Source of the DNA: an uncultured Gammaproteobacteria bacterium
Lineage (GTDB): Bacteria; Patescibacteriota; Microgenomatia; UBA8517
Direction of reading: 5' to 3'
DNA: 64,000 nucleotides
NCBI GenBank assembly: GCA_964502815.1
Contig: CAZCXV010000002.1
Coordinates: forward strand, 22,802-86,801
The translations under genes were made by a program, and so were the position numbers. A model generated the notes under the pieces. It did not search any database. It saw only the letters and a program-made list of their open reading frames with translations, and was not told the origin of the DNA. Every line of letters starts with the position of its first letter. The stretch's first letter is position 1. Shown here in pieces: positions 11,993 through 56,100 of the stretch.

Positions 11993-12007
11993 CTATTACA
12001 GGCTTCG

Positions 12008-12021
12008 CTGTAACGTTATAG
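12008..12021. promoter_or_regulatory. palindromic element CTGTAACGTTATAG in recA upstream region (candidate operator)
   Basis: Core perfect palindrome TAACGTTA flanked by CTGT...(A)TAG, 16-29 nt upstream of the recA start on the minus strand; resembles but does not match the CTGT-N8-ACAG SOS-box logic. Confidence 0.2.
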
Positions 12022-12079
12022 CAAGTCCTGTAGTTAAATGCAATAGGTTATTTGCAAATCAATTTGTTAAAATGGAAAC

Positions 12080-12666: not shown

Positions 12667-12737
12667 TCGGGGAAAGAAGAATTGAACTTCTACCGGACCG
12701 ACCCCATCGGCCCATTCTACCGTTAAACTATTCCCCG
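12667..12737 (-). tRNA. tRNA-Pro (anticodon GGG)
   Basis: Minus-strand cloverleaf CGGGGAA-TA-GTTTAACGGTAGAAT-G-GGCCG ATGGGGT CGGTC-CGGT-AGAAG TTCAATT CTTCT-TTCCCCG-A. 7-bp acceptor, T-loop TTCAATT, U33, anticodon GGG, G37; 71 nt, CCA not encoded. Confidence 0.6.
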
Positions 12738-21778: not shown

Positions 21779-23071
21779 TCAAGCTTTGCTTGTTATAAAA
21801 TGCTCATACCTTCTCATAATAAGCTGGGATTCTAAGTCTTTGGTCAGTTCAATTACCACTGACACTACAATTAAAAGTCCTGTTCCTCCAACTACCAAGT
21901 TTGGTATGGCGACAAAGTTTTGCACAATTGAAGGCAAAATTGCAATAATACCCAAAAAAAGTGCTCCTACTAAAGTAATTTTACTCAAAACCGATCCTAA
22001 ATATTTTGCGGTTTGTGGTCCTGGCCTAGTTCCTGGAATAAAGCCGCCGTTTTTTTGCAAACTTTCGGCAATTTTTTCCGGATTAAAGACCACTGTCGTG
22101 TAAAAATAGGTAAAGGCTACTACAAGCGCAAAATATAAAACATTATACAAAAGAGATTGAGGATTTAAGGCTGCTGAAATATCTTGGGCAATTTTGGCTA
22201 CCTGGGCATTTCCTGTCGAGCCCACAAAGTTAGACACCAAGGATGGCATCAAGATTAAAGATATGGCAAAAATAATTGGGATTACCCCTGCTTGATTTAA
22301 TTTTAGTGGCATATAGGAAGTGGCGCCTGCCACCTCTCCTCTAGAACGTCTTGCATAGTGGACTGGAATTCTTCTGACTGCTTCAGAAATCAAAACCACC
22401 AAGCCCATGACAATCACAGCCAATACTACAAAGAAGGCTACTTTGGCAAAATTTTCAGTTGTAACAAGTCCTTTTGTTTGGACAATAGAAGCCGGAAGTC
22501 TTGAGATTATGCCTGCAAAAATCAAAAAGGATACGCCATTGCCTACTCCATATTGAGTAATCAGTTCGCCAAACCAAATTGACAACATAGTGCCAGTTAT
22601 CATCGTAATAACTAGTGCCAATAACGCCCCAGGAGAAAGGGTAGCAATAATGCCTTGACCACGCAGCAGTAAGTACATGCCAAAAGCTTGCATAGCAGCC
22701 AGTGGAACAGTTAGAAATCTTGTGTATTGGTTAATTTTTTCCTGACCATACTCGCCCTCTTTCTGAAGTTCCTCCAGAGAAGGAATAACAAAACCTAAAA
22801 GCTGGACAATAATTGAAGCATTGATATAAGGCCCCAACCCCAGTGCCATAATAGAAAAGTTTCCCAAAGTTCCCCCTGAAAAAATATCAACCAAAGAAAA
22901 AAGGGCACTACCTTCAAACAAAGCCTTAAGAAGAGGTAAGTTGATGCCAGCTACAGGGACGTGAGCCACTAACCTAAAGATAACTACAATAGCAGCCGTG
23001 ATTAAAAGTTTTTTTCTAATTGCAGGCGTTTTCCCAAGCCTGACAAAAAATTTAGCAATTGAGGCAAACAT
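21779..23071 (-). CDS. secY: preprotein translocase subunit SecY
   Basis: 10-TM SecY-like sequence (N-terminal [25 protein letters not shown], plug and C-terminal YEHFITSK-like tail). Confidence 0.9.
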
Positions 23072-23123: not shown

Positions 23124-24395
23124 ATGCAGTGGTTACTTTATACTGGTGTTATGCAAACCCTCTTAACCGTCAATGAAGCAGCAAAAAAACTCGATATATC
23201 TGTAGATACAATAAGAAGATGGGATAAAAAAGGTCTTATTAAATCTCATCGGTCAAGTAACAATTATAGATTGTTCAATCTAGAAGAAATTGGTAGAATA
23301 CACAACAAAATCTCTAACGGAGTTGGAAAGTTTCAAATCTTGAAATCACTTACAAAGACTAACTACACAGTCATCGATCTTTTTTCTGGAGCAGGAGGTA
23401 CATCCCTTGGATTTGAAAATGCAGGACTAAAACACAAATTACTTGTTGAAATTGATAAAAATGCCGTCAACACTTTAAGAAAAAACCGACCTAATTGGAA
23501 TGTAATAGAAAGCGATATATCTAAAGTTGATTTCAGGGGTTTAGAAGCCGACATTGTTGAGGGTGGTTTTCCCTGCCAAGCTTTTAGTTTCGCTGGTAAA
23601 AAAATGGGGTTTGAAGACATTAGAGGAACTTTATTTTTTGAATTTGCCAGATGCATAAAGGAAGTACGTCCAAAAATCGCGATTGGAGAAAATGTTCGAG
23701 GACTACTTCAACATGACAAAGGTAAAACTTTAAATACCATGGTTAACACATTGAAAGAGTTAGGCTATAAAGTTGGATATAAAGTGTTGAGAGCTCAATA
23801 TTTTGATGTACCTCAAAAAAGAGAACGCTTAATTATAATCGCGGTAAGAAATGATATGAATGTACCAATTATGTTTCCCAAAGAAAAAGATTACATAATA
23901 ACATTACGTGAAGCGTTAAAAAATGTCCCAATCTCCGAAGGACAATCCTACCCTAAAAAAAAGGAAAATATGATGAAACTTATATCTCCTGGTGGCTACT
24001 GGAAAGATTTACCAGTTGAAGAACAAAAAGAATATATGGGAGCTAGTTTTTATATGGGAGGAGGAAAAACCGGCATGGCTCGTAGATTATCATGGGATGA
24101 ACCATCATTGACTTTGACTACTAGTCCAGCACAAAAACAAACAGAAAGATGTCATCCCGAAGAAACGAGACCTCTCACAGTTAAAGAATATGCACGTATA
24201 CAAAGCTTTCCCGATGAATGGATTTTTGAAGGCTCAATTGGTTCACAATATAAACAAATAGGTAATGCTGTGCCTGTTAATCTTGGTTATTATATGGGCA
24301 TGACTGCAGCAGATATACTCAATAAGAATGTTGACCTTAAAAAATATGATCTTTATAAGCAAGAAGAAATCATTTTCCAAGCTGCTCTTTTGTAA
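23124..24395 (+). CDS. DNA (cytosine-5)-methyltransferase with N-terminal MerR/excisionase-like HTH domain
   Basis: HTH LTVNEAAKKLDISVDTIRRWDKKGLI; motif I DLFSGAGGTSLGF, motif IV GGFPCQAFSFAGK, motif VI ENV, C-terminal QIGNAV (motif X). Confidence 0.85.
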   Translation: MQWLLYTGVMQTLLTVNEAAKKLDISVDTIRRWDKKGLIKSHRSSNNYRLFNLEEIGRIHNKISNGVGKFQILKSLTKTNYTVIDLFSGAGGTSLGFENAGLKHKLLVEIDKNAVNTLRKNRPNWNVIESDISKVDFRGLEADIVEGGFPCQAFSFAGKKMGFEDIRGTLFFEFARCIKEVRPKIAIGENVRGLLQHDKGKTLNTMVNTLKELGYKVGYKVLRAQYFDVPQKRERLIIIAVRNDMNVPIMFPKEKDYIITLREALKNVPISEGQSYPKKKENMMKLISPGGYWKDLPVEEQKEYMGASFYMGGGKTGMARRLSWDEPSLTLTTSPAQKQTERCHPEETRPLTVKEYARIQSFPDEWIFEGSIGSQYKQIGNAVPVNLGYYMGMTAADILNKNVDLKKYDLYKQEEIIFQAALL

Positions 24396-25119
24396 AATGT
24401 ACTTTTATATCTTCTGTTAAATCCAAAAGTACCTTTTTTATTAAAGTTTTCCCCTTTACTTTTAAAGCATTAGTGCCAAATAATTCGATTAGATCAGCAT
24501 AGAAATTTTCATCTCCAGTTAAGTGATGCCAAAATTCTTTTCCAACTATCACTGAATATTCTTTGTTAATATTTTTATAATTTCCACTAAGTTCATCTTC
24601 AGTTCCATAAAGTACTCCCACAATTAAATCTTCAAGTGAAATTGATAAATTATTCGTCCTTGCGAGATTTTTGACTGCGACAAAATGCCTAGATATAGTT
24701 TCAACATCATCTTTGTTCACTGTTTGTGGACCAGCTTTAATTTGACAATACTTTTTTCTCCCATCAAGTTTATCTTCAAATTCTATATCAATTCCAGAGG
24801 TCGTCGAAGCAAAACCTGAAAGAACCTGACTACAAAACTTTTGTAGATTATTACCAAAACTTGTATTTATTGAAGTACCCAATATACGTGGATATAAGAG
24901 TACTTTTGCAAGTGTTTCTGGTTTTGTATTACCGTCCATAAAAATTCCCAAATAATTTAATAAAAAAGGATTGTATTTAAACGAGGATAGTTTTCGCAAT
25001 TTCTTTAAGTTACTAACGTGATTTGGAATTATCGTTTCTCCAAAAAACTTTTTTGCGTTTTCTAAAATTTGTATTTTAAGCTTTTCGTCCATTCTCCCGG
25101 TAATATTAACACAAATCAA
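24370..25119 (-). CDS. putative type II restriction endonuclease (partner of the C5-MTase)
   Basis: Convergent with the MTase and overlapping it by 26 nt at the 3' ends. ~240-250 aa with no transporter or enzyme motifs; possible degenerate PD-(D/E)xK-like region GIDIEFEDK...CQIKAG. Assigned from context only. Confidence 0.4.
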   Translation of the reverse strand: MICVNITGRMDEKLKIQILENAKKFFGETIIPNHVSNLKKLRKLSSFKYNPFLLNYLGIFMDGNTKPETLAKVLLYPRILGTSINTSFGNNLQKFCSQVLSGFASTTSGIDIEFEDKLDGRKKYCQIKAGPQTVNKDDVETISRHFVAVKNLARTNNLSISLEDLIVGVLYGTEDELSGNYKNINKEYSVIVGKEFWHHLTGDENFYADLIELFGTNALKVKGKTLIKKVLLDLTEDIKVHFTKEQLGK

Positions 25120-25139: not shown

Positions 25140-25571
25140 TTACTTTAAAGAGTTTTCAACAGATTTAGACATAGGAAGATTTATTTCAAGCTTCTTTTCC
25201 AGTTTTCCCTTGCCAAGAATTTTTACACCGTATTTTAAAGCTTTTTTGCCAACAATTTTCTTGTCGATTAAAAGATCAATGGTTACCTTTGTTCCTACCG
25301 GAAGTATATTTAATTTTTCTATGTTTACTGGCAGTGCCTTTGGATGGGTTTTGTTTTTTAATTTTCCTCTCAGAAAGGGAAGCCTATGAATTAAGGATTT
25401 TTTCACTTTCATGCCTTCAAACAAAATTCCAATCGAGCCTCTAGCCTTTTGACCTTTTTGTCCACGGCTTGAAGTGTGTCCACCTTTACCCGAACCATAG
25501 CCTTGGCCTTTTCTTTTGTCTTTCTTGGTTACAATCCTTTGTAATTTCATACTATTTTGTTTTCCTTTCAT
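25140..25571 (-). CDS. rplO: 50S ribosomal protein L15
   Basis: Gly/Lys-rich N-terminus KRKGQGYGSGKGGHTSSRGQKGQKARGS, typical of L15. Confidence 0.85.
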   Translation of the reverse strand: MKGKQNSMKLQRIVTKKDKRKGQGYGSGKGGHTSSRGQKGQKARGSIGILFEGMKVKKSLIHRLPFLRGKLKNKTHPKALPVNIEKLNILPVGTKVTIDLLIDKKIVGKKALKYGVKILGKGKLEKKLEINLPMSKSVENSLK

Positions 25572-33708: not shown

Positions 33709-34134
33709 TTAAGTTAGACCTAATCTTAAATTAACTGGACCATCTGTTAACATACCCCTATATTCACGACCAATTTCCCCAATCACATCTTTTGAAGACA
33801 AACTCATTTTTGGTGCATATTTCTCAACTAGGGCTCTTGCGGCTGGTACCCCAGCCAAAGCCGCGCCCAATATACCGCCAACCAGATATCTAATCGCATT
33901 TTTCTGAGTCCCAACACTATCAAGTGCAATCTGGAAACCTGAATCAAAAACATTAGCCTCTGCTTGAGGGGGAGATGATCCCAGGATTGCATTAGACACT
34001 CCTCTTACAAACCAGTTATCATACCCATCAGGATATTCCATAGATAAATAATTCATCACTTCCACTAACTTTTGTGGCATGACTTGTGTATCCACAATAT
34101 CACCAGCTCTAATTTGTTTAAAAATCTCTGACAT
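33709..34134 (-). CDS. hypothetical protein (141 aa) between rpsJ and rplC
   Basis: Clean ORF in the operon orientation; no recognised motifs (Gly/Ala-rich GGILGAALAGVPAARAL segment). Its AUG lies within a 7-bp hairpin (34133-34150). Confidence 0.4.
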   Translation of the reverse strand: MSEIFKQIRAGDIVDTQVMPQKLVEVMNYLSMEYPDGYDNWFVRGVSNAILGSSPPQAEANVFDSGFQIALDSVGTQKNAIRYLVGGILGAALAGVPAARALVEKYAPKMSLSSKDVIGEIGREYRGMLTDGPVNLRLGLT

Positions 34135-34538: not shown

Positions 34539-35717
34539 TTAAGCTATAATCTTGGTAATAACTCCAGCTCCAACTGTTCTGCCACCTTCTCGGATGGCAA
34601 ATCTCATCCCTTCTTCAAGGGCTACTGGAACTATTAATTTTACTTTCATTTTAGCATTGTCTCCTGGCATAACCATTTCAATGCCTTCAGGTAGAGTTGC
34701 CTCTCCTGTAACGTCCGCTGTCCTTATAAAAAACTGTGGCTTGTAGCCTGTGAAAAATGGTGTATGTCTTCCACCTTCTTCTTTAGAAAGAATGTAAACT
34801 TCGGCTTCAAACTCGGTGTGGGGAGTAATCGATCCCGGCTTTGCCAAAACTTGGCCTCTTTCAATGTCGTCTTTTTCAATACCTCGAAGCAAAAGTCCGG
34901 CATTGTCTCCAGCTTGAGCATCATCAAGGCTCTTTCTAAACATTTCAATACCAGTTACAACGGTTTTCTTGGTTGGTTTTATTCCAACAATTTCAATTTC
35001 TCCGTTTAATTTCAAAGCTCCTCTTTCAACCCTGCCAGTTACAACAGTTCCACGTCCTTTAATAGAAAAGACATCTTCAACAGGCATTAAGAAAGGCTTA
35101 TCAGTATCACGAACTGGATCCGGGATATAGGTGTCAACCGCATCCATAAGAGCCTGGATTTGTTTTTCTGCTTCCCCGTCGCCTTCTGTAGCTTTAAGAG
35201 CTGATCCTTTAATTACTGGTACATCGTCTCCTGGGTATTCATATTTTTTGAGAAGATCCCTAACATCTGCTTCAACCAAGTCAATAATTTCTGGGTCATC
35301 AACCATGTCGCATTTATTCAAAAAAACTACCAAAGCTGGTACGTTAACCTGGCGAGCTAAGATTACGTGCTCTCTGGTTTGTGGCATAGGACCATCTACT
35401 GCAGAAACTACCAAGATTGCTCCATCCATCTGAGCAGCACCAGTGATCATATTCTTGATGTAATCTGCGTGACCTGGAGCATCGATGTGGGCATAGTGCC
35501 TTTTTTCAGTTTCATATTCTTGGTGAGAAAGATTAATAGTAACTCCTCGCTGTCTTTCTTCTGGCGCTGAATCAATGTCGCCATAAGTTTTTGCAGTCGC
35601 AAGACCCTTTTTGGCCAAAACCATAGTAATAGCTGAGGTTAAAGTAGTTTTTCCATGATCAACGTGACCGATGGTTCCGATATTTACGTGTGGTTTAGTT
35701 CTTGAAAATGCTGCCAT
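34539..35717 (-). CDS. tuf: elongation factor Tu
   Basis: [26 protein letters not shown]-motifs and an EF-Tu-like sequence over its full length; a TATAAT-like hexamer (minus, plus 35728-35733) sits only 10 nt upstream of the ATG. Confidence 0.95.
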
Positions 35718-35851
35718 TGTTACTTGTATTATATTTTCTTTGCCTTTAAAAATCTAGGGGCAAATAAAAAAGGCCTAATTTAGCCTGGTGATGGTATTAT
35801 ATTCGAGCCTATTTATTCGTGTCAACTGGCAAATCAGACCTAACTTTCTAA

Positions 35852-37066
35852 TTATTCCACCACTTTTGCAGACAATGCATTCTTGCGCATGTGAGTCTGT
35901 TTGCACAGCCATTCATACTCTTTTTTACTTAATACATCTTGGTAGTCCGAAAGCGCCTGATCTATCTCGTCTGTTGTCATCTTCCATAATCTTTCTCGAC
36001 GCAGTTCATTTTTAATTTTATTCTTTCTACCATCATCTTTTACAAACATTCCCGATAAACCACTGGGTTTATCGAGTTTACCTACTAAGTGATCCGCCAA
36101 TCGATCCTCGACTTCAACTAATCTATCCATGTTTAAAATTTTCCCATTGATTGCGAATTCGACATATTTATAAAACTCCCCAGCCAAACTCTTAAATTTC
36201 TGAGAACCAATATCAAGGCTGCCAATCTCACTTCTAGCTATTAGATTCTCTATATCTCCCAGTAAGTCAAAGTAAATTGTAAGATTGACGTACTCTAACA
36301 TTTGCTTTGTTTCATAAGCATTTAATAGATAATTATTTTGAATGTCTTCTATTTTTTTAGATAATAATTCCATAAGCCTCATGCCATCTTCATCATAGAT
36401 GTATATTTTCTTTAACTTCTCAGAGTTTTGAGGGTGAATGCTTTTAAAAACTTCCAATGTGTCTGGAGTAGAACTTGTTCTAGGTCCAAGACGGTTGTAA
36501 TCAAAAACAAAGTTAGATGGTAATAATCCTTGCTGTTGATATGATGCAATCACTTTGGCGACTGAAGAATTTCCATCGGCAATTGAACTATTAATATCTG
36601 TACGTAATTGTCTTAATACTTGTTTTTCCAAGTCGTTTCTCAACTTTTCGAAGTCATCTTTCATGTTCGGAAACAACAATTCCTTTTCTCTGATTCGCTT
36701 AAATCGTTGACTTACTGCAACTAAATCCCCGGCACCTTCTGATCTGTGCATGTGACGAGAGATAGACCGAGGTATAGCATCTTTTATGCGTCCAGAAAAT
36801 CTATCAACTGTCTGCCTTAAGCCTTCGGGCAATTCATCTCTAAATATCAAAAAATCCTCAACCGGAGCATCCAAACCCCAACCTTGCGTTTTCCCATCAA
36901 CTATTTCATGAGCCAATTGCTGCTCACTTTTTAGAGGATAATGTTGTTTTGTTACTTCCCACTCAAGAATTACGTTGGCTATAAATTCCCCATCCAATAT
37001 CTGTAATGGTTGATTGGCTTTTGCCTCAGGCTGACTTGGAGTAATTACATCTGATACTTCACTCAT
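35852..37066 (-). CDS. hypothetical protein (404 aa, acidic, no TM)
   Basis: Long clean ORF between tuf and the CoA-transferase; no recognised motifs; followed by a weak hairpin + T6 (plus 35766-35786). Confidence 0.45.
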   Translation of the reverse strand: MSEVSDVITPSQPEAKANQPLQILDGEFIANVILEWEVTKQHYPLKSEQQLAHEIVDGKTQGWGLDAPVEDFLIFRDELPEGLRQTVDRFSGRIKDAIPRSISRHMHRSEGAGDLVAVSQRFKRIREKELLFPNMKDDFEKLRNDLEKQVLRQLRTDINSSIADGNSSVAKVIASYQQQGLLPSNFVFDYNRLGPRTSSTPDTLEVFKSIHPQNSEKLKKIYIYDEDGMRLMELLSKKIEDIQNNYLLNAYETKQMLEYVNLTIYFDLLGDIENLIARSEIGSLDIGSQKFKSLAGEFYKYVEFAINGKILNMDRLVEVEDRLADHLVGKLDKPSGLSGMFVKDDGRKNKIKNELRRERLWKMTTDEIDQALSDYQDVLSKKEYEWLCKQTHMRKNALSAKVVE

Positions 37067-37130
37067 GAGTTAAGTATAACTTATAGAGTTGTATTTGGTG
37101 GTTTCTACAAAATTAGATATACTCCAGAGT

Positions 37131-38255
37131 ATGAATAAAATATTTTCTGGAGTCAGAGTTTTAGATCTAACCAAAGTTTTCAGTGGTCCTTTTGCAACCA
37201 GAATGTTGGCTGATTATGGAGCAGAAGTAATAAAAGTTGAAAACAGCCTTTCTCCAGATGACACTAGAAACTTTCCTCCCTTAAAAAATAACTGGAGCGG
37301 TTATTTTGAAATTTTAAATCGCAACAAAAAAGGGGTAAGTTTAAATCTTAAAAATGAAATTGATTTGCAAAAACTTTACAGCTTAGTCAAAAACTGCGAC
37401 GTCTTTGTAGAAAACTTTGCACCAAAAACCAAATTTAGCCTCAAAATCGACTATCAAACTCTAAGGAAGATAAACCCAGAAATTATCTATGCCTCACTTT
37501 CTGGACGTGGACAAACTTCCAGTGAAAAGTATTATGACATCATTGCCCAAACCCAGTCCGGTCTTCTTTCTTTAACTGGAGAAGAAAGAAAACCAATAAA
37601 AATTGGTCCTGCGGTAGTTGATGCTTTTTCTGGAATGACTCTGGCGTTTGCAATTTCTTCAGCACTTTTTTACAAACAAAAAACAGGACAAGGACAATAT
37701 ATTGATGTCTCCATGCTTGCCTCTTCCTATAACTTATTGGAAAGCAGCTTAATCCAGTCTTCAGTAACAAAAACAAATCCCAAAAGAACAGGAAACCAAG
37801 ATGGCTTAATTGCTCCTTTTGGAATCTATAAAACTAAAGATGGTTTTATAGCGATTGCCATTGGCAACCAGCTCTTTTGGAAAACTTTTGCTGGTTTCCT
37901 GCAAAAGGAATCCTCTATCTCTATTCCCTGGGATAAATTTTCCAGCAATGAAGCAAGAATTCAAAATCAAACAAAGTTAACCCAGATAATTGAAACTGTT
38001 TTTAGCAGATTTGAAACAGAATATCTAGTTTTTGCTTTAAAAGCTTTAAATCTCCCTGTTTCCAAAGTAAACACCATGCAGGATGTTTTGAAAAATGAAT
38101 TTAACTACCAAGAAAACTTTCTCTTAAGGGGAAAAAATGAGAAGGCCGGTGAATTTGTAACTACTGGTTTTTCAGTAAGATTTTCTGAACAAAAAGATTA
38201 CCAGATAGTAAACGCTCCCCAAATAGGAGAAAATAATAAGGATTATGGGATTTGA
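37131..38255 (+). CDS. CoA-transferase family III (CaiB/BaiF/formyl-CoA transferase family)
   Basis: N-terminal GVRVLDLTKVFSGPFATRMLADYGAEVIKVE is the family III CoA-transferase signature. Start at internal Met (MNKIFSG); track ORF starts at 37089. Confidence 0.75.
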   Translation: MNKIFSGVRVLDLTKVFSGPFATRMLADYGAEVIKVENSLSPDDTRNFPPLKNNWSGYFEILNRNKKGVSLNLKNEIDLQKLYSLVKNCDVFVENFAPKTKFSLKIDYQTLRKINPEIIYASLSGRGQTSSEKYYDIIAQTQSGLLSLTGEERKPIKIGPAVVDAFSGMTLAFAISSALFYKQKTGQGQYIDVSMLASSYNLLESSLIQSSVTKTNPKRTGNQDGLIAPFGIYKTKDGFIAIAIGNQLFWKTFAGFLQKESSISIPWDKFSSNEARIQNQTKLTQIIETVFSRFETEYLVFALKALNLPVSKVNTMQDVLKNEFNYQENFLLRGKNEKAGEFVTTGFSVRFSEQKDYQIVNAPQIGENNKDYGI

Positions 38256-39174
38256 CCTCCTGCCCTATAAAGATGGTTATTTCCAAAAATTAGTTGACCT
38301 ACTTAGTCTATCCTTTGAGATGAAAGCACAAGACAAACAAGAACTCATAAGGTGGAAACTACTTAATAGAATCTGGGGTGAGCCAATAATTTATACTGCT
38401 TTTAGTGAAGATAGATTAATAGGTGTCTACACCAGTATTCCCCATCCAATCTCCTACGAAAACGAAACTATTTTGGCGACTGGCTGCATTGATATGGTTA
38501 CCCACCCTGATTACAGAAGACAAGGAATAATTAAAAAATTAGCAGAAAAAACCTATCAAGAAGTAAAAAATCAAAATTACGAATTATCTTTTGGCTTTTC
38601 AAACGAAGAGGGAGTAAAAGTAGACCTGAATGCCAATGGTTACGGCTACTTTGTCCTCGGCAAGTTTCAAAAATATTACAAATTAGTTGTCAGAAAGAAA
38701 AGTTGCAGCCTTTCTTTAAAAGAAACGGGTGATATAAATGTTCCAGCTTTCATTAATCCTTACTTGCAAATAAAGAAAGACAAAAAATACCTAGACTGGA
38801 GATATATCACAAAGCCTGGTGTAGATTGCCAACTGTTTGAGATACAAGGAGACACTACTGGCTTAGTAGTATTGAAATTCGAACACAACTCCTGCTATGT
38901 CTATGATATTGTTTCAGATTACTCAGACCAAAAAAACATTTTTGAAATTGTGAGAGCAATAGAAAATTACTGTTTTGATAAACACATCCATATGGTTGTC
39001 TACAACTGTTTAAAAAATAAATTTTGGGAGAAAATATTTGCCAGTTTCAAATTCTTGAAACTACCAGATGTTGGCAAGAAATACTATTTCACGGTAAAAG
39101 TCCACAACGATCAAAATAAAAATCTTTACCTAAACAAAAACAATTGGTTACTTCTTTCTGGAGATATTATTTAG
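38245..39174 (+). CDS. GNAT-superfamily acyltransferase (FemAB/BioF2-like size)
   Basis: Acyl-CoA binding motif MVTHPDYRRQGIIKKLAE (R/Q-x-x-G-x-G/A); 11-nt overlap with the upstream CoA-transferase suggests an operon. Confidence 0.5.
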   Translation: MGFDLLPYKDGYFQKLVDLLSLSFEMKAQDKQELIRWKLLNRIWGEPIIYTAFSEDRLIGVYTSIPHPISYENETILATGCIDMVTHPDYRRQGIIKKLAEKTYQEVKNQNYELSFGFSNEEGVKVDLNANGYGYFVLGKFQKYYKLVVRKKSCSLSLKETGDINVPAFINPYLQIKKDKKYLDWRYITKPGVDCQLFEIQGDTTGLVVLKFEHNSCYVYDIVSDYSDQKNIFEIVRAIENYCFDKHIHMVVYNCLKNKFWEKIFASFKFLKLPDVGKKYYFTVKVHNDQNKNLYLNKNNWLLLSGDII

Positions 39175-39748
39175 CTAACTTTTTTCCCGATCTGACAACT
39201 TCCTCAATAGAATGTGCATGAATTTTTATGCACTGCATTTTGTTTGCTGGGTTTTCAACAATGATTGTCGTATTGTCTAGTTGTTCACTTTTGACTGTCG
39301 GTCTACTCATTTTATATCTACCCATAAAGTTGGGAAATCTTTTCAAAAAAGCACTTTCAATATTTTCTCCCTCTTCCAAAGGTAAAACAAATTCCGCGTG
39401 TTCAAGTCCATCTTCTGGAAAATCGTGATTCACACTTGGATATGGAACTTCAACACAAGGAGTTTCTAATCCCTTCACTTTGAAATTTAGAATTCTTCTT
39501 CTATTTACTAAAGCTCTTGAAATTCTTTTGCTTCCACTTTCAGCTTCAATTTCTTTCCTCAACCTGTCAGTTGTCGCAATACCTGCGATTCTTAATCCTA
39601 CATGATCTATCACCAAATCCTCAATTCCATCAAGACCAACACTGTGCCCAAACTGAATTAAATTGTCAATAAAGTCAGGAATTTGTTCCTTAACACTAAA
39701 CCAGTTCAGACCTGAAGATTCTGTTTTTCTATCTTTGAAATCTACCAT
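39167..39748 (-). CDS. YecM-like protein (VOC-fold, DUF991-type)
   Basis: DHVGLRIAG, EDGLEHAEFVLPLEEGE and IKIHAHSIEEVV mirror the E. coli YecM motifs DHISLRCH, HEGWEHIEIVLPG, IKFHPWSIEEIV. Start at internal Met (MVDFKDRK); track ORF overlaps fusA. Confidence 0.5.
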   Translation of the reverse strand: MVDFKDRKTESSGLNWFSVKEQIPDFIDNLIQFGHSVGLDGIEDLVIDHVGLRIAGIATTDRLRKEIEAESGSKRISRALVNRRRILNFKVKGLETPCVEVPYPSVNHDFPEDGLEHAEFVLPLEEGENIESAFLKRFPNFMGRYKMSRPTVKSEQLDNTTIIVENPANKMQCIKIHAHSIEEVVRSGKKLAK

Positions 39749-39752
39749 TTTT

Positions 39753-41924
39753 TTAGTTTCTAGTAGCAGGGCCAGCCATTTTTTTAGCAACTAACATGGC
39801 TTGGATATTTGCAGGAACTTCTTCATAATGGGATGGCTCAATATAGGGAACTGCTCTTCCTTGAGTCATTGACCGAAGTTGGGTGGTAAAACCAGACAGT
39901 TCTCCCAAAGGTGCCATGCCATTTACCACAGTCATCATTCCTCTTTCCTCTGTTCCTTGAATTTGGGCTCTTTTACTGGAAAGAGAGCCAATAACATCTC
40001 CCATATATTCTGCAGGAGTAGTTACTTCAATTTTTACAATTGGCTCAAGTATTACTATATCGGCATTTTTGGCAGCTGCCTCAACTGCCATAGAGCCTGC
40101 AATCTTAAAAGACATTTCAGAAGAATCCACATCGTGGAAAGAGCCATCATAAACTGCTACCAAAACATCAGTTAGTGTAAATCCCGCAAGTATCCCTCCT
40201 TCAAGTTTTTCTTTAATGCCTTTTTCAATTGCCGGAATGAAAGACTGGGGAATTGCACCACCTTTAATCTCAGAAACAAATTTAAAACCTTCTCCCCGAG
40301 GCCGTGGTTCAATCCTAACGAAACAGTGGCCATATTGACCTCTGCCTCCAGTTTGCCTAATGTATTTGCCTTCGCCAGTTGCAGCCTTTTTAACCGTTTC
40401 TTTGTAGGCAACTTGGGGAGCTCCTGTGTTTGCAACTACATTAAATTCTCTGCGCATTCGGTCAACCAAAATTTCTAGCTGCAATTCTCCCATGCCGGAA
40501 ATAATTGTCTGGCCGGTTTCAAGGTTTGACTTGATTCTAAAAGTTGGATCCTCATCAGATAATTTATTTAAAGCCAATCCCATTCTTTCCTGATCAGTTT
40601 TTGTTGCGGGCTCAATGGCCAGAGAAATAACTGGCTCAGGAAAAGTAATTGCTTCCAAATGAATCGGATTTTTTTGCTGACAAAGGGTATCTCCAGTGGT
40701 AGTCTCTTTAAAGCCTACAACAGCCACAATTTCCCCAGAATAAGCTTCATCAACCAGTTCCCTCTGATCTGCATGCATCAAAACTAATTTGCCAACCCGC
40801 TCAGAAGTTTGCCTAACGGTGTTATAAATACTTTCCCCAGCTTTTATGGTTCCAGAATAAACTCGCACAAATACTAGTCTTCCTACATGCGGATCAGTCA
40901 TTACTTTAAATGCCAAGGCTGATAGGGGAGCCTCATTGTTTCTCTCCATGAGAACTTTCTGACCATTTCTAGGATCTGTTCCTTCAACCATCGGAAGGTC
41001 AATGGGGGAGGGAAGATATTCAACCACTGCGTCAAGAAGGGTTCTAACGGTTACCATTCTGTTGTCGCCTCCTAGGATTGGGAAGAATTTGCCCGAAATT
41101 ACGCCTTTTCTAATTGCTCTTTTAATATCTGCTTCCGTTAATTCCTGACCCTCAAGATATTTATTCAAAGCTTCATCATCATACTCGGCAACTTTTTCAA
41201 TAAGTTCCTCCCGATACTGCTTTGCCTTGTCTAGCATATCTGTAGGGATTTCTTCTTCAGCCAGTTGATTATCTTCAATGTCTTTGTAGGTATAGGCCTT
41301 CATCTTTACCAGATCAACAATTCCATGCAGCTCGTGTTCAAAACCAATTGGTAGCTGAATAGCCACCGCATTTGCCCCAAGTCTTTCATGAATAGACTTT
41401 AAAGAGCCTTCAAAGTCAGCCCCAATTAAATTAAGTTTATTTAAGACACAGATTCTTGGCACATTGTATTTATTCGCTTGCCTCCAGACAGTTTCTGACT
41501 GGCTTTCTACTCCTGTTCGGCCGTCAAACACCATGACCGCACCATCAAGAACCCGCAGGGAACGCTCAACTTCAGCCGTGAAGTCAATGTGGCCTGGAGT
41601 ATCGATAATATTTACTCTATAGTGGCCATTTTCAACTGAAGACGAACTTTGCAAATCCCAGAAAGTGGTGATAGCTGCAGAAACAATAGTAATTCCTCGT
41701 TCTCTTTCCTGATCCATCCAATCAGTGACGGTTGTTCCTTCGTCAACCGATCCATGCTTGTAAGTCTTGCCAGTTTCAAAAAGAATACGTTCTGTAGTAG
41801 TGGTTTTTCCGGCATCAATATGGGCAATAATACCGATATTTCGGATTTTTTCATACGACACCAAACGATCCTTGGTGACCGTTGAAGCAATAGCTGATTT
41901 TTTCTTTGCAACTTGTCCTGCCAT
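39753..41924 (-). CDS. fusA: elongation factor G
   Basis: AHIDAGKTTTTERILF, DTPGHIDF, NKLN G-motifs and EF-G domains II-V; 723 aa. Confidence 0.95.
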   Translation of the reverse strand: MAGQVAKKKSAIASTVTKDRLVSYEKIRNIGIIAHIDAGKTTTTERILFETGKTYKHGSVDEGTTVTDWMDQERERGITIVSAAITTFWDLQSSSSVENGHYRVNIIDTPGHIDFTAEVERSLRVLDGAVMVFDGRTGVESQSETVWRQANKYNVPRICVLNKLNLIGADFEGSLKSIHERLGANAVAIQLPIGFEHELHGIVDLVKMKAYTYKDIEDNQLAEEEIPTDMLDKAKQYREELIEKVAEYDDEALNKYLEGQELTEADIKRAIRKGVISGKFFPILGGDNRMVTVRTLLDAVVEYLPSPIDLPMVEGTDPRNGQKVLMERNNEAPLSALAFKVMTDPHVGRLVFVRVYSGTIKAGESIYNTVRQTSERVGKLVLMHADQRELVDEAYSGEIVAVVGFKETTTGDTLCQQKNPIHLEAITFPEPVISLAIEPATKTDQERMGLALNKLSDEDPTFRIKSNLETGQTIISGMGELQLEILVDRMRREFNVVANTGAPQVAYKETVKKAATGEGKYIRQTGGRGQYGHCFVRIEPRPRGEGFKFVSEIKGGAIPQSFIPAIEKGIKEKLEGGILAGFTLTDVLVAVYDGSFHDVDSSEMSFKIAGSMAVEAAAKNADIVILEPIVKIEVTTPAEYMGDVIGSLSSKRAQIQGTEERGMMTVVNGMAPLGELSGFTTQLRSMTQGRAVPYIEPSHYEEVPANIQAMLVAKKMAGPATRN

Positions 41925-41937
41925 ATACTTATATTAC

Positions 41938-41965
41938 AAAAAAGATCCCGATTCCATATCGGGAT
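41938..41965 (-). terminator. intrinsic terminator (perfect 8-bp hairpin ATCCCGAT-N5-ATCGGGAT + U6) 12 nt upstream of the fusA start
   Basis: Inverted repeat at plus 41945-41965 followed on the minus strand by TTTTTT (plus 41938-41943); ends the small-peptide operon and sits in the fusA 5' region. Confidence 0.5.
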
Positions 41966-41972
41966 ACTTGTG

Positions 41973-42001
41973 ATTATATCTATTTCTTGAAAAATTAGCA
42001 A
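41973..42001 (-). promoter_or_regulatory. promoter-like TTGCTA-17-TATAAT immediately upstream of the fusA hairpin
   Basis: Minus-strand -35 TTGCTA (plus 41996-42001), 17-nt spacer, -10 TATAAT (plus 41973-41978); the predicted TSS coincides with the hairpin start. Confidence 0.3.
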
Positions 42002-42166
42002 TTGAGGTATACAATCCTTCCAAATGACAGAAGGTGATCTGGGTAAAGGAATTTCGCCTCAAATTCATCACGAGTTAAACAGTGGACTGAATTTGACCAG
42101 GTTTCAGAAGAACTGAAGTTACAATATCCACTAACAAGAGAAGATGATGGGCTAACTATAAAGTAG

Positions 42167-42259
42167 TTATTTTTTATCCACCACAAAAAAAATTATATAA
42201 CTACCAACGAGCGTAAGTGTTGCCCCAATTATCATTACTATTTGATATGCTTGAATCAT
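42167..42259 (-). CDS. small hydrophobic peptide B (30 aa, single TM)
   Basis: MIQAYQIVMIIGATLTLVGSYIIFFVVDKK; start overlaps the stop of peptide A (ATGA). Confidence 0.3.
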   Translation of the reverse strand: MIQAYQIVMIIGATLTLVGSYIIFFVVDKK

Positions 42260-42381
42260 TTTATTTTAGCCTTCCTATTTTTATTTCTTTTCAAATTCAA
42301 TAATAACACAGCACCCCAAATAAGAGCCAAACCTTGAATCAGCCAAAATACGCCAATACCAAAATTGAAATCAAATTGCAT
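42256..42381 (-). CDS. small hydrophobic peptide A (41 aa, single TM, basic tail)
   Basis: MQFDFNFGIGVFWLIQGLALIWGAVLLLNLKRNKNRKAKIK; overlaps the 3' end of the upstream 67-aa ORF in another frame. Confidence 0.3.
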   Translation of the reverse strand: MQFDFNFGIGVFWLIQGLALIWGAVLLLNLKRNKNRKAKIK

Positions 42382-42574
42382 TTATTTCCCTTTCTTCTTG
42401 TAATTTGAGTCCAATCCTAATACATCCATATACTGCTAAAGTACTTAATACAATGTTAATAATTTTAATAATAAATGTCGTGTTTGTGGGAATATTTGAA
42501 AATCCAAAAATACCAAGAGTGATCCCTTTTGCTAAATCATAGAAAAAGCTTGCTAGAGAATCGGCTTGTTTCAT
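42371..42574 (-). CDS. small membrane protein (67 aa)
   Basis: Start at internal Met (MKQADSLASFFYDLAKGITLGIFGF...). The track ORF's longer N-terminus would cover the consensus promoter, so the shorter form is preferred. Confidence 0.35.
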   Translation of the reverse strand: MKQADSLASFFYDLAKGITLGIFGFSNIPTNTTFIIKIINIVLSTLAVYGCIRIGLKLQEEREINAI

Positions 42575-42599
42575 ATTAAATAACGAATACATTAAATCC

Positions 42600-42628
42600 A
42601 TACTAAAACAAATTTTTAACTTTGTCAA
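42600..42628 (-). promoter_or_regulatory. consensus sigma70-type promoter TTGACA-17-TAGTAT for the small-peptide operon
   Basis: Minus-strand -35 TTGACA (plus 42623-42628), 17-nt spacer, -10 TAGTAT (plus 42600-42605), ~25 nt upstream of the 67-aa ORF start. Confidence 0.4.
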
Positions 42629-42712
42629 GTATCTATAGAATAATATCTATAAGAGGAATTTATGTTGAAGTAAATTTATATTTTAAATCTTTAAAAAAAC
42701 CGAGGATACGAC

Positions 42713-52090: not shown

Positions 52091-52483
52091 TTATTTGTAT
52101 TGTACCTGATCCAAATAACTTTGCAAGATAATGGCAGCTGCATAAGCGTCTTCCATATCTTTTCTCTTCTTTCTTTTGATGCCAGCCTCACGAGCCAGAA
52201 ATTGGGCGTCTAAGGAAGATAAAGTTTCATCGTGGAAAACTACCTCAATATTAAGTTTCTCTTTTAATTTCTTACCAAACTCAAGTGCATCTTTTTTTGA
52301 ATCTCTTTCACTCTTCCCCACCACTATTCTCTCAATATTGTGCGACTTAATTATTTTTGTCAGTTTTTCAATTAGTTTTTCTTCACTTGAATACCTGATA
52401 ACTTCCAAAGGTTCAGAAATTTTGGTCTCGGCAAGAGCCACCCCTACTTTGGCTTGCCCGAAGTCAATTCCTAATAGCCGCAT
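52091..52483 (-). CDS. ruvX: Holliday junction resolvase-like RuvX/YqgF
   Basis: MRLLGIDFGQAKVGVALAE (RNase H-like first strand with catalytic D), ...KDMEDAYAAAIILQSYLD C-terminus. Confidence 0.8.
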   Translation of the reverse strand: MRLLGIDFGQAKVGVALAETKISEPLEVIRYSSEEKLIEKLTKIIKSHNIERIVVGKSERDSKKDALEFGKKLKEKLNIEVVFHDETLSSLDAQFLAREAGIKRKKRKDMEDAYAAAIILQSYLDQVQYK

Positions 52484-53120
52484 TTGCCTCCTCTGGTGGA
52501 ACAATCCTAGCTTTTACTACAAGTCTTTTTGGTCTGGTTGGATCTCCTGGTGGGGTACAGGTAACAAGGGTTAAAAATGAATCGCTCAAGTTTTGTTCCA
52601 ATACTTGGGCATCAGTTGGAACTACTTCGGTCATACTTTCGATTCGATATTTATAGCTCACGCCGTCATATGCCACAAACACTTCATCATTCATTTTTAG
52701 CCTATCCAAAGTTGAAAAAATGGTAATGTAGCTTTTGGGGTCAAAAAAAGCCGGTAAAACTGAATGGCCAAAAACCACCGCATTGCCTCTCTTTCCTGGA
52801 ACTGCAGTTCCAGGGTATTGAATTAAATGTTCTGCCAAATCTTCTCCACCAATTGCTACAGCTGCATTTTCAATTTTTAACTTTGGGATAGAAATAGTAT
52901 AAAAAACAACATTATTCGAACCAAAATCACCTGGTTTGGATTCTGGCAACCAGTTTGACAATTTCGAATAATCAATACCGTTAGTTTTCGTAAAAGTCGC
53001 AAACTTCTGGTCTTTGGTTAAATTGTAGCTAACTATTGGATAAAACACCCAGACAATAATTCCTAGGCCAACTAGACCACTGGTAATTGCAATTAATCTT
53101 AGTATTAGTTTTGTCTTCAT
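52464..53120 (-). CDS. sortase family transpeptidase
   Basis: N-terminal TM, catalytic GHSV (His) and TLVTCTPPG (TLxTC Cys) motifs, conserved Arg in RLVVKARIV. Confidence 0.7.
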   Translation of the reverse strand: MKTKLILRLIAITSGLVGLGIIVWVFYPIVSYNLTKDQKFATFTKTNGIDYSKLSNWLPESKPGDFGSNNVVFYTISIPKLKIENAAVAIGGEDLAEHLIQYPGTAVPGKRGNAVVFGHSVLPAFFDPKSYITIFSTLDRLKMNDEVFVAYDGVSYKYRIESMTEVVPTDAQVLEQNLSDSFLTLVTCTPPGDPTRPKRLVVKARIVPPEEANAAIRN

Positions 53121-53187
53121 ATTTCTAAGTCTCTCACAATTTAGCAAATCTACAACACACTCCACAAGAGATATCCTTTAAAGAAGT

Positions 53188-56100
53188 TTAAGAGCTTGTG
53201 TTTTTCTCCCACAAAACATCCATATCGTCAATCATGTATGGCGGGTTGTAAGAAAATCTTTTAGTCGTTTGGAATTTATATGATTTTCCAACTTCAGATA
53301 TTCTTTTTTCTATAGCTTTTTCAAATCCCCCACCTGTTCTATTAGTTCTAATAGCTGTATTTTTTGAAACTAATATCTTATCAAAATCATTGTTATTGGC
53401 AAATTGCTCTACTTTTTTTATTATTCCCACAAATAATGCTTCTTCATCTACGGAATATAGGTATGTACTTGAAGGATTGAAGGAGACTGACAACAGTTTT
53501 TGACCGTTTTCTTCGTATGCATGCATCAATACCAAACCCTGACAGATTGCTGTTTCTGGGTCTTTAAACACCAACTGCAAATACTCGGGCATATTCCACA
53601 TCTCTTCATCACCTGAAACACACACTCCTCCTACCATTCTTGCATTTGCTGTTTCTTTTGTCTTTGAGATATAGCCATACAAAACTTCTCTTTGCTTTCC
53701 AGAAAGTGATTCAAACTTTTCAAGTTCATCTTGTATTGCAAGTCTTTCCAATTCAAAGATATCTATAAACCTCTGGGCAGTGTATGAAGCAAACTGTTCA
53801 TCATCATATTTTCCACTTCTAATATTTGCTTCTACATTTAATGCCTCTTGCAAATTTATTTCCCCCAAATGTGTCCCTGAATCTATTTCACCATTAGTTA
53901 TTAACTTATATGCAGCTAGTGTTTTTTCTCTTTGTGACCTTAACTGAGCATAAAAAGCTTTAGTGCGCGCCTTGGGAGATTCTGTTTTATCATTAGACAA
54001 GTAATCCACAAAACTCTCGTAGCGATCAACGATTCTATCGATAGATGGTCTCATTTCTTGCCATTGTATTTCCAATTCCTCCTTTTTCTTCCTTAAGCCA
54101 TTCCTATCTTCTTCAAGTTGTTTTATCTTTTCTTTTCTTTCATCAACAATCTTAATTGCACCTGCCTTACCTATATTCTTTTGAACTCGTGATATTTCAT
54201 TATCTATATTTGCAATATCATCTAATACCTGAGCTGCTGGAATTATTACATTAAAAAATGGAATTCTATTAGGAACTACTTCCATATTTTTCTTTATTTT
54301 TTCGGCGCTACTCAAAATTTTAACAACTTGTCGAGCGAAGCTATCTGATAATCCCAGCCTGTCAATTTGCAATCTATTGATTTCATCTTGTCTTTCAGAA
54401 CTGGATGCTTCTTCAGATAATTTCTTAAAATATTCCGGCATTGCATCTGCAATAGTTTTGTTTTCCCACGCAAATTGAACGATTCTCCTGTGTACCTCTT
54501 TTATCCTGTCTGCATAGAATGTTTCCAATTCACATAAAAGTGCATATTGAGGATTATTTGCAATTCCTACTCTATCTCTTGTTCCAGCAATATAATCTGC
54601 TATATCTTCAAACTCTGCAAACTCATACTTGATTATCAAACTCTTAATTACTTCTGGATCTAAACTTTTTGTTCCATATATTGAATCAGATAGAACTAAA
54701 AATAACTTTTCTTCAGCTGTTTTAACTTCCGCTAAATTAACACTTTGCAATCCACCGATTTCTACAATTTGAGCTAATGTTTCATCAAGGTTAACAATTA
54801 GTAATTCCATTGCTTTTTGTTTGTCATAATTAAAATCTTTCATTTGGTCAGCCACAGCATATATTGGAGTTTGAATATTTTCATGAACTTGCAAATTCAA
54901 TTGTTGTCCATCTTTAACCCTAATTTCTGCTTGAGATAGTAAATCTATTTCATATCTGGGATCAATTTTATATTTTGCCAAATCTTGTGATCTGTCTTCA
55001 CATTTTTCGTTTTCCGTGTAAGATGACCAACCACTAGCATTCTCTGCATAAACATGCCTGAGTAAGTCTTTATAAAACGGCTTTTTCCGTTCTTCTTCAG
55101 AGATTATTTCTTCACCAGTCATTTTCTCGGCCAAACCTTTAAGTTGAACCATAAACATCTTCTCACTTCCATTTTGTTTGGCTTGCTTGTAAGCTTCAAC
55201 AATACCAGGAGTTATAACCCTAAATTGTTTTGCAAATTCTATAATTAGACTTCGTTCGCTTTGATCTATTACTCCTGCATCTAAACATTCTTTATATCCT
55301 CTAATAATAGAGTCTGACTTTTGTCCAAACTCTCCAATTAACCTACCAAGAAATTTGACATCCTCAGTAGTTTCCATCAGTTCTCCATGGTTAGAAAAAA
55401 CGAAATTCCAAATCTCGGACATTTTTTCACCAAGTAATGATTTTGCGTATTTCGGTATCGAGAAAATTCCTTCTAGCTCGATTTCCGTATTTCTTATCGC
55501 ATTGGTAACTTCTTGAGAAGTCAAGTATCTCAATATTTCCAACTTCTGTTGGTTTTCGTAAATTTCAGCGGACAAAGATATTACTCTTTGTAGACGTATG
55601 AGCGCATCTTTTTGTCCAATGCGGTCTCCTATTTCACTTTCAACAACCATAAAAAGCAATTTGTCTCTGAGCAGTTTTTGAAAATAGAAGCTTTTAATAT
55701 CAACCCAACCTTTTAGTTTAGGTCTACCATCTCGCATAGCATCCATGGTTTTTTCAATTTCCAATAATTTATTGTCGGTCTCAAACAAAGAAGCCGCCTC
55801 TTGCTGCGAAATTGTTCCCCTTGAAATTAAGAGATCTGCAAGTGTCTGAGTCCTTAAAGTTTCTGCAGCCAAGGATAATAATTCAGGATTTCTGTCCTCT
55901 ACATTAGTTAATATTGATATTGCAAATTCTTCTGCTTTTCTTGAACCAAGTGATACTATTCTATCGCTACCCCCAAGTATCCAACCTTCCAACACCTTTC
56001 TGTTGTTTTCAAGTCCTGGATATTTTGTGATAGCAGCGTCAATAATTTGCTGCCAGTCTGATCGTTTTGAGAGTTCATTTAAGGCGGTATTGACTGCTGA

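Follow-up and report, generated by a model that had tools for sequence, protein, structure and literature searches.

A composite segment between fusA and tuf in a probable Patescibacteria-type bacterium includes a conserved CoA-transferase and tandem GNAT gene pair

Layout and conservation of the fusA–tuf interval

The DNA analysed here is a stretch of 64,000 nt from contig CAZCXV010000002.1 (hereafter the window), which probably derives from a groundwater metagenome bacterium of the Patescibacteria/candidate phyla radiation (CPR) type. Its low GC, the groundwater setting and L3 and S10 sequences that match CPR loci slightly better point to this affiliation. Its minus strand carries rpoB, rpoC, rpsL, rpsG, fusA, tuf and rpsJ in this order, followed by the S10/spc ribosomal genes, and the segment in question lies between fusA (EF-G) and tuf (EF-Tu), where 4,035 bp with four real genes separate the fusA stop codon from the tuf ATG (Table 1). 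Two of the four form a plus-strand cassette, encoding a family III coenzyme A (CoA) transferase and an N-acyltransferase with two tandem GNAT domains; the other two, on the minus strand, encode a 404-aa protein (o404) and a YecM-like protein. The original prediction had described these four open reading frames (ORFs), their domains, the 11-nt overlap within the cassette and the terminator and promoter details upstream of tuf, and was correct on all of them.

Table 1. Features of the fusA–tuf interval and its boundary genes (positions in the window)
Feature	Coordinates	Strand	Description
tuf (EF-Tu)	34539..35717	-	Downstream boundary; 392-aa ORF; Pfam domains in gene-caller record
tuf promoter and leader	35718..35825	-	TTGACA 35825-35820; TATAAT 35801-35796; hairpin and T-run 35786-35761; second TATAAT 35733-35728
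o404	35852..37066	-	404 aa; soluble, predicted all-helical, fast-evolving, lineage-restricted
Divergent spacer, o404/cassette	37067..37130	.	64 nt; 11-mer ACTTATAGAGT (37079-37089) common to L082
Family III CoA-transferase	37131..38255	+	374 aa; PF02515 (CoA_transf_3) E 1.3e-100, profile 2-366 of 366
CoA-transferase stop/GNAT start overlap	38245..38255	+	11 nt, ATGGGATTTGA
Eis-like tandem-GNAT N-acyltransferase	38245..39174	+	309 aa; Acetyltransf_9 (PF13527) E 2.7e-17, 63.4 bits vs cut-off 25
YecM-like VOC-fold protein	39167..39748	-	193 aa; PF06185 E 1.1e-25, 90.9 bits vs cut-off 25, 6-179 of 180
Palindromic hairpin	39214..39233	.	40 nt past GNAT stop, inside YecM-like 3' end; terminator-like on both strands; pattern match
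fusA (EF-G)	39753..41924	-	Upstream boundary; 723-aa ORF; Pfam GTP_EFTU, EFG_III, EFG_IV, EFG_C (gene-caller record)

The size of the gap is unusual for bacteria at large, but less so for Patescibacteria-type organisms. The baseline was an EF-Tu scan with one genome per species, which covered all phyla and EF-Tu sequences 67-75% identical. Among the matches listed, 37 non-CPR loci had fusA upstream of tuf and spacers of 14-244 bp between the two, and a lone value of 822 bp (L027) is apparent only, being a split EF-G alignment; the claim that the two genes normally adjoin and are here split by about 4 kb is thereby borne out. Among the same matches, six Patescibacteria-type loci had spacers of 0.56-4.1 kb, and these larger gaps contained a small Phd/YefM-like gene, pilin-like genes or a 1,134-aa ORF.

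The comparison that bears most on the history of the segment comes from a contig of a different organism, L082, which was found through the o404 homologue P0009 (o401). It shows the order rpoC, rpsL, rpsG, (o132), fusA, o113, GNAT, CoA-transferase, o401, o269, tuf and rpsJ, and three of the four segment genes occupy the same site there, namely the cassette pair and the o404 homologue, while the YecM-like gene differs. Between the window and L082, identity is 93% for EF-Tu and S12, 89% for EF-G, 85% for RpoC, 73% for L3 and 66% for L4, compared with 68% for the CoA-transferase, 48% for the GNAT and 22% for o404/o401. Four-fold-type third positions of conserved codons are 38-54% identical, close to saturation. 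Because the slot is the same despite saturated synonymous sites, the CoA-transferase, GNAT and o404/o401 genes must already have been lodged between the two translation-factor genes in a common ancestor of some depth. The arrangement is thus derived relative to most bacteria, yet old and vertically kept. An accessory insertion had been predicted, for which neither conservation in relatives with housekeeping annotations nor a known family for the 404-aa protein was expected; the genes are kept in L082, but they bear no housekeeping annotation and o404 belongs to no known family. L082 also encodes an extra 269-aa acidic protein (o269, 11235-12044 of that contig) between o401 and tuf, with no counterpart in the window; it has a HELGH (HExxH) motif and a weak Peptidase_M78/IrrE-like match (E 0.007).

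A second conserved element is the region directly upstream of tuf. It holds a TTGACA-18-TATAAT promoter match at 35825-35796 that agrees with the sigma-70 consensus at 12/12 positions and was missing from the original prediction, followed by a 5-bp hairpin (35786-35771) with a T-run and by the second TATAAT, separated by 10 nt from the ATG of tuf (35717). The stretch that begins with the -35 hexamer and runs up to this ATG is identical between the window and L082 at 86/108 positions, despite a different upstream gene in L082. Both leaders keep the two promoter hexamers (-35 and -10), the hairpin and T-run, a GCCCCTAGATTTT block and the second TATAAT. Since synonymous sites are near saturation, this conservation points to purifying selection on what may be a private promoter and leader of tuf. 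Such a promoter would let tuf be transcribed independently of fusA, so that genes lodged upstream would not cut EF-Tu expression, and the split of fusA from tuf may have been tolerated because tuf has its own promoter and leader. If so, the conserved private promoter offers a concrete reason how a strongly conserved gene adjacency broke and stayed broken. A conserved RNA element in the leader was also considered and dropped, as no Rfam match was found there and the fold z-score was -0.3.

The gene for o404 is real, because it is a 404-codon ORF in DNA of 37% GC with a counterpart of nearly the same length (401 codons) and position in L082. The protein had been described as acidic and without a recognisable domain; the second part holds, as no family match was found in Pfam, NCBIfam, PADLOC or PHROG, whereas the pI of 5.6 makes it only mildly acidic. 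It is hydrophilic, has no transmembrane segment and is predicted to be helical and soluble, although the underlying model is unreliable (the AlphaFold2 single-sequence model, with a predicted local distance difference test (pLDDT) score of 45.6, is unusable). A word-index search of 5.8e9 proteins returned only o404 itself, and an exhaustive HMMER search of 1.84e9 cluster representatives returned one other protein, P0009 (401 aa, E 2.8e-5), which is colinear with o404 (BLASTP E 6e-11). A profile of o404 and o401 gave nothing better than E 0.026 against PDB sequences, and PADLOC assigned no family to o404, o401, the YecM-like protein, the GNAT or the neighbouring ORFans. PHROG likewise matched neither o404, o401 nor those ORFans. 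What is striking is the rate of change relative to its neighbours, with 22% identity where EF-Tu keeps 93%. This makes o404 a clean case of a positionally conserved near-orphan gene, usable for the study of very fast protein evolution.

The divergent layout of o404 and the cassette is kept, with the two 64 nt apart in the window and 85 nt in L082, and together with the common 11-mer this makes a functional link between them possible. The 11-mer could be a promoter element, and o404, transcribed divergently from the cassette, may be its partner or regulator. In the other four loci that carry the cassette (see below) o404 is not beside it, and no homology was found between o404 and the cassette-flanking proteins in two of them (L086 and L087). 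A palindrome over the o404 start codon (37054-37077) was considered as an operator and rejected, as it is not conserved in L082.

The YecM-like gene behaves differently from the other three. Its product matches the Escherichia coli YecM structure 1K4N over residues 19-188 (E 5.2e-11), and has a PHROG match to a family of unknown function. The ATG lies 4 nt past the fusA stop, and this spacing suggests that the gene and fusA could be co-transcribed; an alternative TTG start at 39790, which would give 207 aa and corresponds to the end coordinate predicted originally, overlaps fusA and is less likely. L082 lacks this gene and carries an unrelated ORF of 113 aa (o113) in its place, and homologues with 43-44% identity adjoin ychF or a DHODH fragment elsewhere, not fusA or the cassette. 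The gene is an add-on to fusA in a slot whose content varies between relatives. Given this variable slot, and the independence of the YecM-like gene from the cassette elsewhere, the segment is a composite of independent units and not one island. The GNAT and YecM-like genes converge with an 8-nt overlap of their 3' ends (39167-39174), and the two genes at this place in L082 are convergent too, with a 4-nt overlap; with this convergent layout, a transcript that continued past the fusA unit would enter the cassette in antisense.

The CoA-transferase and GNAT gene pair

The first enzyme of the cassette is a full-length member of the family III CoA-transferases (337.5 bits against PF02515, cut-off 23.3). 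The gene caller chose the ATG at 37131 as its start, and a TTG at 37089 would give 388 aa. Its nearest relatives in the PDB are SUGCT (9BR6), YfdE (4HL6) and formyl-CoA transferase (E 1e-53 to 3e-59), and residue D164, in the stretch IGPAVVDAFSGM, aligns with the conserved Asp of these chains. This Asp presumably corresponds to Asp169 of Frc, the catalytic residue on which the acyl-aspartyl anhydride is built. The candidate catalytic D164 is invariant in four cassette orthologues, and the four full-length orthologues are 49-69% identical. On the other hand, the NCBIfam equivalog cut-offs are missed widely (Mct 221/700, YfdE 218/522, SucGlut/CaiB-type 216/750, Frc 202/442 and CaiB 116/413 bits), so that substrate specificity is not transferable from any named enzyme.

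The second enzyme is a GNAT protein of Eis-like fold, for which the AlphaFold2 model has a mean pLDDT of 90.4. The best Foldseek matches are 3N7Z, 2I00, 2HV2 and Eis2, with query-normalised TM-scores of 0.64-0.69 over ~315 columns, a probability of 1.00 and E values from 3e-16 to 5e-12; the next fold neighbours are N-myristoyltransferases (NMTs) and a tandem-GNAT glucosamine N-acetyltransferase. Invariant positions in the family alignment are T86-H-P-D89, R91, G94, N120 and, near the C-terminus, W301, G306 and D307. The C-terminus itself (W301...G306-D307 plus two residues) may parallel that of Eis and NMT, in which the terminal carboxylate acts in catalysis. The family is tiny, with nine matches in the word-index search of 5.8e9 proteins, and a PHROG match is marginal (E 0.0045).

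The pairing of the two genes is consistent. At all six close-subfamily loci (the window, L082, a JGI contig, L086, L087 and L089) the CoA-transferase gene is directly upstream of the GNAT gene on the same strand. The two reading frames overlap by 11 nt in four of them (the window, L082, L086 and the JGI contig) and by 14 nt in L089, and in L087 they are 5 nt apart. This constant adjacency and the conserved overlap suggest that the product of the CoA-transferase may be the acyl donor of the GNAT. The hairpin at 39214-39233 is a candidate terminator of the plus-strand cassette.

The gene contexts in other genomes give hints on function. In the JGI contig the cassette is immediately preceded by a FemAB gene of the same orientation, LytR_cpsA_psr and PMT genes are close by, and in L086 the neighbours comprise family 2 glycosyltransferases (GT2), a polysaccharide deacetylase, an NTP-transferase, two large polytopic membrane proteins and a sortase. 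More distant relatives of the GNAT occur without the CoA-transferase in sugar clusters: between a polysaccharide deacetylase and a GT2 gene in L088, between NeuB and UDP-GlcNAc 2-epimerase genes in L090, and, on a Sinorhizobium megaplasmid (L091), inside a complete cluster with 4,6-dehydratase, DegT, NTP-transferase, PIG-L, 2-epimerase, PglD-like and NeuB genes. The earlier suggestion that the pair belongs to a small-molecule or cell-wall modification pathway is supported by these contexts. On gene context and fold, the most economical reading is a GNAT family that would transfer acyl groups to the amines of envelope glycan precursors.

Origin and possible role of the segment

Taken together, the segment is best explained as an old composite lodged in a junction of the str/S10 gene cluster that would be transcriptionally uncoupled in this lineage, and including an opposite-strand cassette that would acylate envelope-glycan precursors; we give this reading about an even chance of being right. 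Under this explanation, the CoA-transferase, which precedes the GNAT in a coupled and conserved order, would activate a free carboxylic acid by passing to it the CoA of a common acyl-CoA donor; the characterised enzymes closest to it act on short dicarboxylates. With the resulting non-standard acyl-CoA, the GNAT would then N-acylate an amine on a glycan or peptidoglycan precursor of the cell envelope, and an amino sugar is the most probable acceptor. In the transferase-linked subfamily, CoA transfer to a free acid would supply an acyl-CoA for which the cell has no other route. In the literature searched, no description of a CoA-transferase/N-acyltransferase pair was found, nor did searches on YecM yield a precedent of use here. 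The conserved, translationally coupled CoA-transferase and tandem GNAT are the most useful new result of this analysis, although they are built from well-known enzyme families.

Several observations weigh against this explanation. The closest structural relatives of the GNAT, the Eis-like enzymes, have aminoglycosides and proteins as their known targets of acetylation, not sugars. In the acyl-CoA-binding beta4-alpha3 segment, the GNAT motif R-x-x-G-x-G/A takes the form R91-R-Q-G94-I-I, which departs from the canonical pattern at its last position. The cassette has no glycan genes beside it in the window or in L082, and in L087 it comes after secA. The substrate, the acyl group and the acceptor are proposals from gene context and fold. 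The placement of the cassette between fusA and tuf is seen in two genomes only (the window and L082), and the hairpin that separates tuf from the perfect promoter would form the extreme 5' end of the transcript from that promoter.

One alternative is that the cassette modifies the translation apparatus, with the GNAT acylating a ribosomal protein or an elongation factor in the manner of RimI, RimJ or RimL, which would explain its retention between fusA and tuf. Its placement between two translation-factor genes is indeed kept in two diverged genomes, the second half of the GNAT family profile weakly matches a bS18-alanine N-acetyltransferase (9MTO, E 4.9e-4), and the fold neighbours (Eis-like enzymes and N-myristoyltransferases) acylate proteins. 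We nevertheless regard it as unlikely, because the cassette is on the strand opposite to the translation genes, adjoins envelope/glycan genes or secA rather than translation genes in four other genomes, and has distant family members in sugar-nucleotide clusters. Moreover, the acyl donor of Rim enzymes is acetyl-CoA, and they work without a CoA-transferase.

Slightly less probable is a role in xenobiotic or antibiotic defence, in which an Eis-like acylation would act on aminoglycoside-type amines and the CoA-transferase would supply or recycle acyl-CoA in a metabolically minimal cell. Eis-family enzymes are the best structural neighbours, and AAC(2') acetyltransferases match weakly at the sequence level (E 0.004-0.05); however, the resistance-enzyme matches fall far below curated cut-offs (17.3 against 350 bits for the AAC(2') NCBIfam model). 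The SCP2 domain of Eis is also lacking: Pfam gave no match to it in the GNAT, and the structural alignments span the two GNAT domains only, with target-normalised TM-scores of 0.50-0.57. In addition, the genomic contexts elsewhere are biosynthetic, and PADLOC gave no match.

The original prediction had favoured a single accessory island, inserted as one block into the str operon, and a recently acquired mobile or horizontally transferred element now seems very improbable. The mixed orientation and a 4-kb gap where most bacteria have <250 bp speak for it, as do other accessory insertions in the same ribosomal cluster (e.g. a restriction-modification pair between secY and rplO) and the bulk GC of the segment, 0.34-0.37 against 0.42 in the flanking fusA and tuf. 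However, the first two codon positions account for the lower GC, a pattern that other non-ribosomal genes show too, while the GC content at third codon positions (0.253-0.342, against a window mean of 0.316 +/- 0.041) and the codon-usage distances (0.82-0.99, inside the window range of 0.46-1.50) are ordinary, so that the compositional deviation suspected for 35852-39748 is not there. The flanking repeats that had been proposed as a sign of insertion were not found either, the region around the segment having only short repeat pairs of low identity. The four genes have no integrase, transposase or recombinase domains in Pfam or NCBIfam, no tRNA is adjacent (the single tRNA of the window is at 12667), and no close relatives of the segment were found in plasmid, phage and viral collections. 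The 'recent' and 'single block' versions are refuted by these results together with the L082 synteny, in which three of the four genes are kept at saturated synonymous divergence, and the independence of the YecM-like gene. Of the inference from mixed orientation to insertion, what stands is that the order is derived relative to most bacteria, and what falls is the single inserted island.

The arrangement is also supported at the level of assembly. Contigs from other sequencing runs are 100% identical to window positions 36155-39938, 37431-39284, 38182-39719 and 38196-39719, and a metagenome scan with the GNAT alignment returned the same organism only (L085). Two contigs from another sample with low coverage, L095 (coverage 1.6) and L096, are identical to the window from 37426 on but depart from it there, inside the CoA-transferase gene; the departing part (positions 1-490 in each) has 43% GC and an unrelated HExxH ORF and would truncate the CoA-transferase, and the right end of L095 changes to a different EF-G, the fusA of a second species. 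They are most likely chimeras, and possibly a strain variant with a disrupted cassette. That the fusA–tuf arrangement is itself an artefact of a chimeric metagenome contig is hardly credible, since independent runs reproduce the segment, a different organism has the same gene order and the two aberrant contigs that break from it are themselves likely chimeric.

Beyond the segment, accessory genes are common at the junctions of the ribosomal super-operon in this lineage. A type II restriction-modification pair, made up of a C-5 cytosine methylase that begins with a MerR helix-turn-helix domain (23124-24395, plus strand) and an EcoO109I-type endonuclease (24370-25119, minus strand), lies between secY (21779-23071) and a gene at 25140-25571 that is presumably rplO. 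Between rpsJ and rplC stands a 141-aa ORFan (33709-34134) with no family match, which forms a single-member cluster on six contigs, and the same junction of L082 (13710-15750) holds o256, an FtsJ methyltransferase and o216 instead. The 790-bp spacer between rpsG and fusA (41925-42712) contains three tandem small hydrophobic ORFs of 85 or 76, 41 and 30 aa (42167-42628, minus strand), while that of L082 contains an unrelated 132-aa gene on the opposite strand; just upstream of fusA, a perfect 8-bp palindromic hairpin (41945-41965) accompanies a promoter-like site (10/12, 42001-41973). Upstream of rpoB, two very large overlapping ORFs of 1,440 and 760 aa (53188-59770, minus strand), without a Pfam domain or LPxTG motif, adjoin genes for a sortase (52464-53165), RuvX and a YceG/MltG-like protein. 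In other Patescibacteria-type genomes, the Phd/YefM-like small gene lies directly upstream of tuf at four loci (L013 9579-9824, L025 9482-9877, L042 4062-4364 and L012 5729-6010). The Phd/YefM match covers the N-terminal ~45-60 residues below the Pfam cut-off (E 1e-6 to 3e-4), three of the four proteins are mutually similar by BLASTP, and no toxin partner was seen at the four loci. This gene is absent from the window and was set aside as a component of the segment.

A bolder version of the envelope-glycan reading joins three proposals, and as a whole we consider it doubtful: (i) the gene pair would be an undescribed salvage route that places a non-acetyl acyl group from a scavenged acid on a surface-glycan or cell-wall amine in minimal CPR-type bacteria; (ii) o404 would be a rapidly co-evolving acceptor, scaffold or regulator; (iii) ribosomal super-operon junctions would be long-lived landing pads, since each downstream block would have its own promoter. 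Should the cassette work in the way its contexts point to, bacteria with almost no central metabolism could obtain unusual acyl-CoA donors by CoA transfer from a scavenged acid rather than by de novo synthesis, which would bear on envelope variation in episymbiotic CPR bacteria. Current understanding is not overturned, as the enzymes come from well-known superfamilies and their function here is deduced from context and fold.

Comparison with known systems

In the canonical arrangement, the str operon (rpsL-rpsG-fusA-tufA) is followed by the S10 operon, and the window keeps the order rpoB-rpoC-rpsL-rpsG-fusA...tuf-rpsJ-rplC on one strand. Unlike the canonical str operon, it has fusA and tuf 4 kb apart, a tuf gene that appears to have its own conserved promoter, and lineage-specific genes at the rpsG-fusA, rpsJ-rplC and rplO-secY junctions. 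The YecM-like protein aligns with E. coli YecM (1K4N, PF06185) over ~170 residues; it differs in scoring below the NCBIfam equivalog cut-off (87 vs 237 bits) and in the position of its gene directly after fusA.

With SUGCT, YfdE, Frc (YfdW) and succinyl-CoA:mesaconate CoA-transferase, which act on short dicarboxylates, the window CoA-transferase has in common the full-length PF02515 domain and the aligned Asp. With 216-221 bits against cut-offs of 522-750, however, it is no orthologue of any named enzyme, and it is translationally coupled to an N-acyltransferase instead of being embedded in a catabolic pathway.

The GNAT resembles Eis and Eis-like enzymes (3N7Z, 2I00, 2HV2 and Mycobacterium abscessus Eis2) in its N-terminal Acetyltransf_9 domain, its second GNAT-like domain and a CoA-binding stretch of the H-x-R-R-x-G type. 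It is ~90 residues shorter (309 vs ~400 aa), lacks an SCP2-type third domain and is 10-18% identical to them, and unlike Eis it is obligately paired with a CoA-transferase gene; we know of no Eis gene in such a pair. In the way it would work, though without a claim of membership, the GNAT can also be compared with the N-acyltransferases of amino-sugar and nonulosonic-acid pathways, of the PseH, LegH and PglD type, as distant GNATs of the window family sit in NeuB clusters (L090 and L091). PseH is a single-domain GNAT, and PglD and LegH are hexapeptide-repeat enzymes. These enzymes take acetyl-CoA from central metabolism and have no dedicated CoA-transferase, unlike the cassette, in which the CoA-transferase gene accompanies the GNAT gene at every close-subfamily locus.

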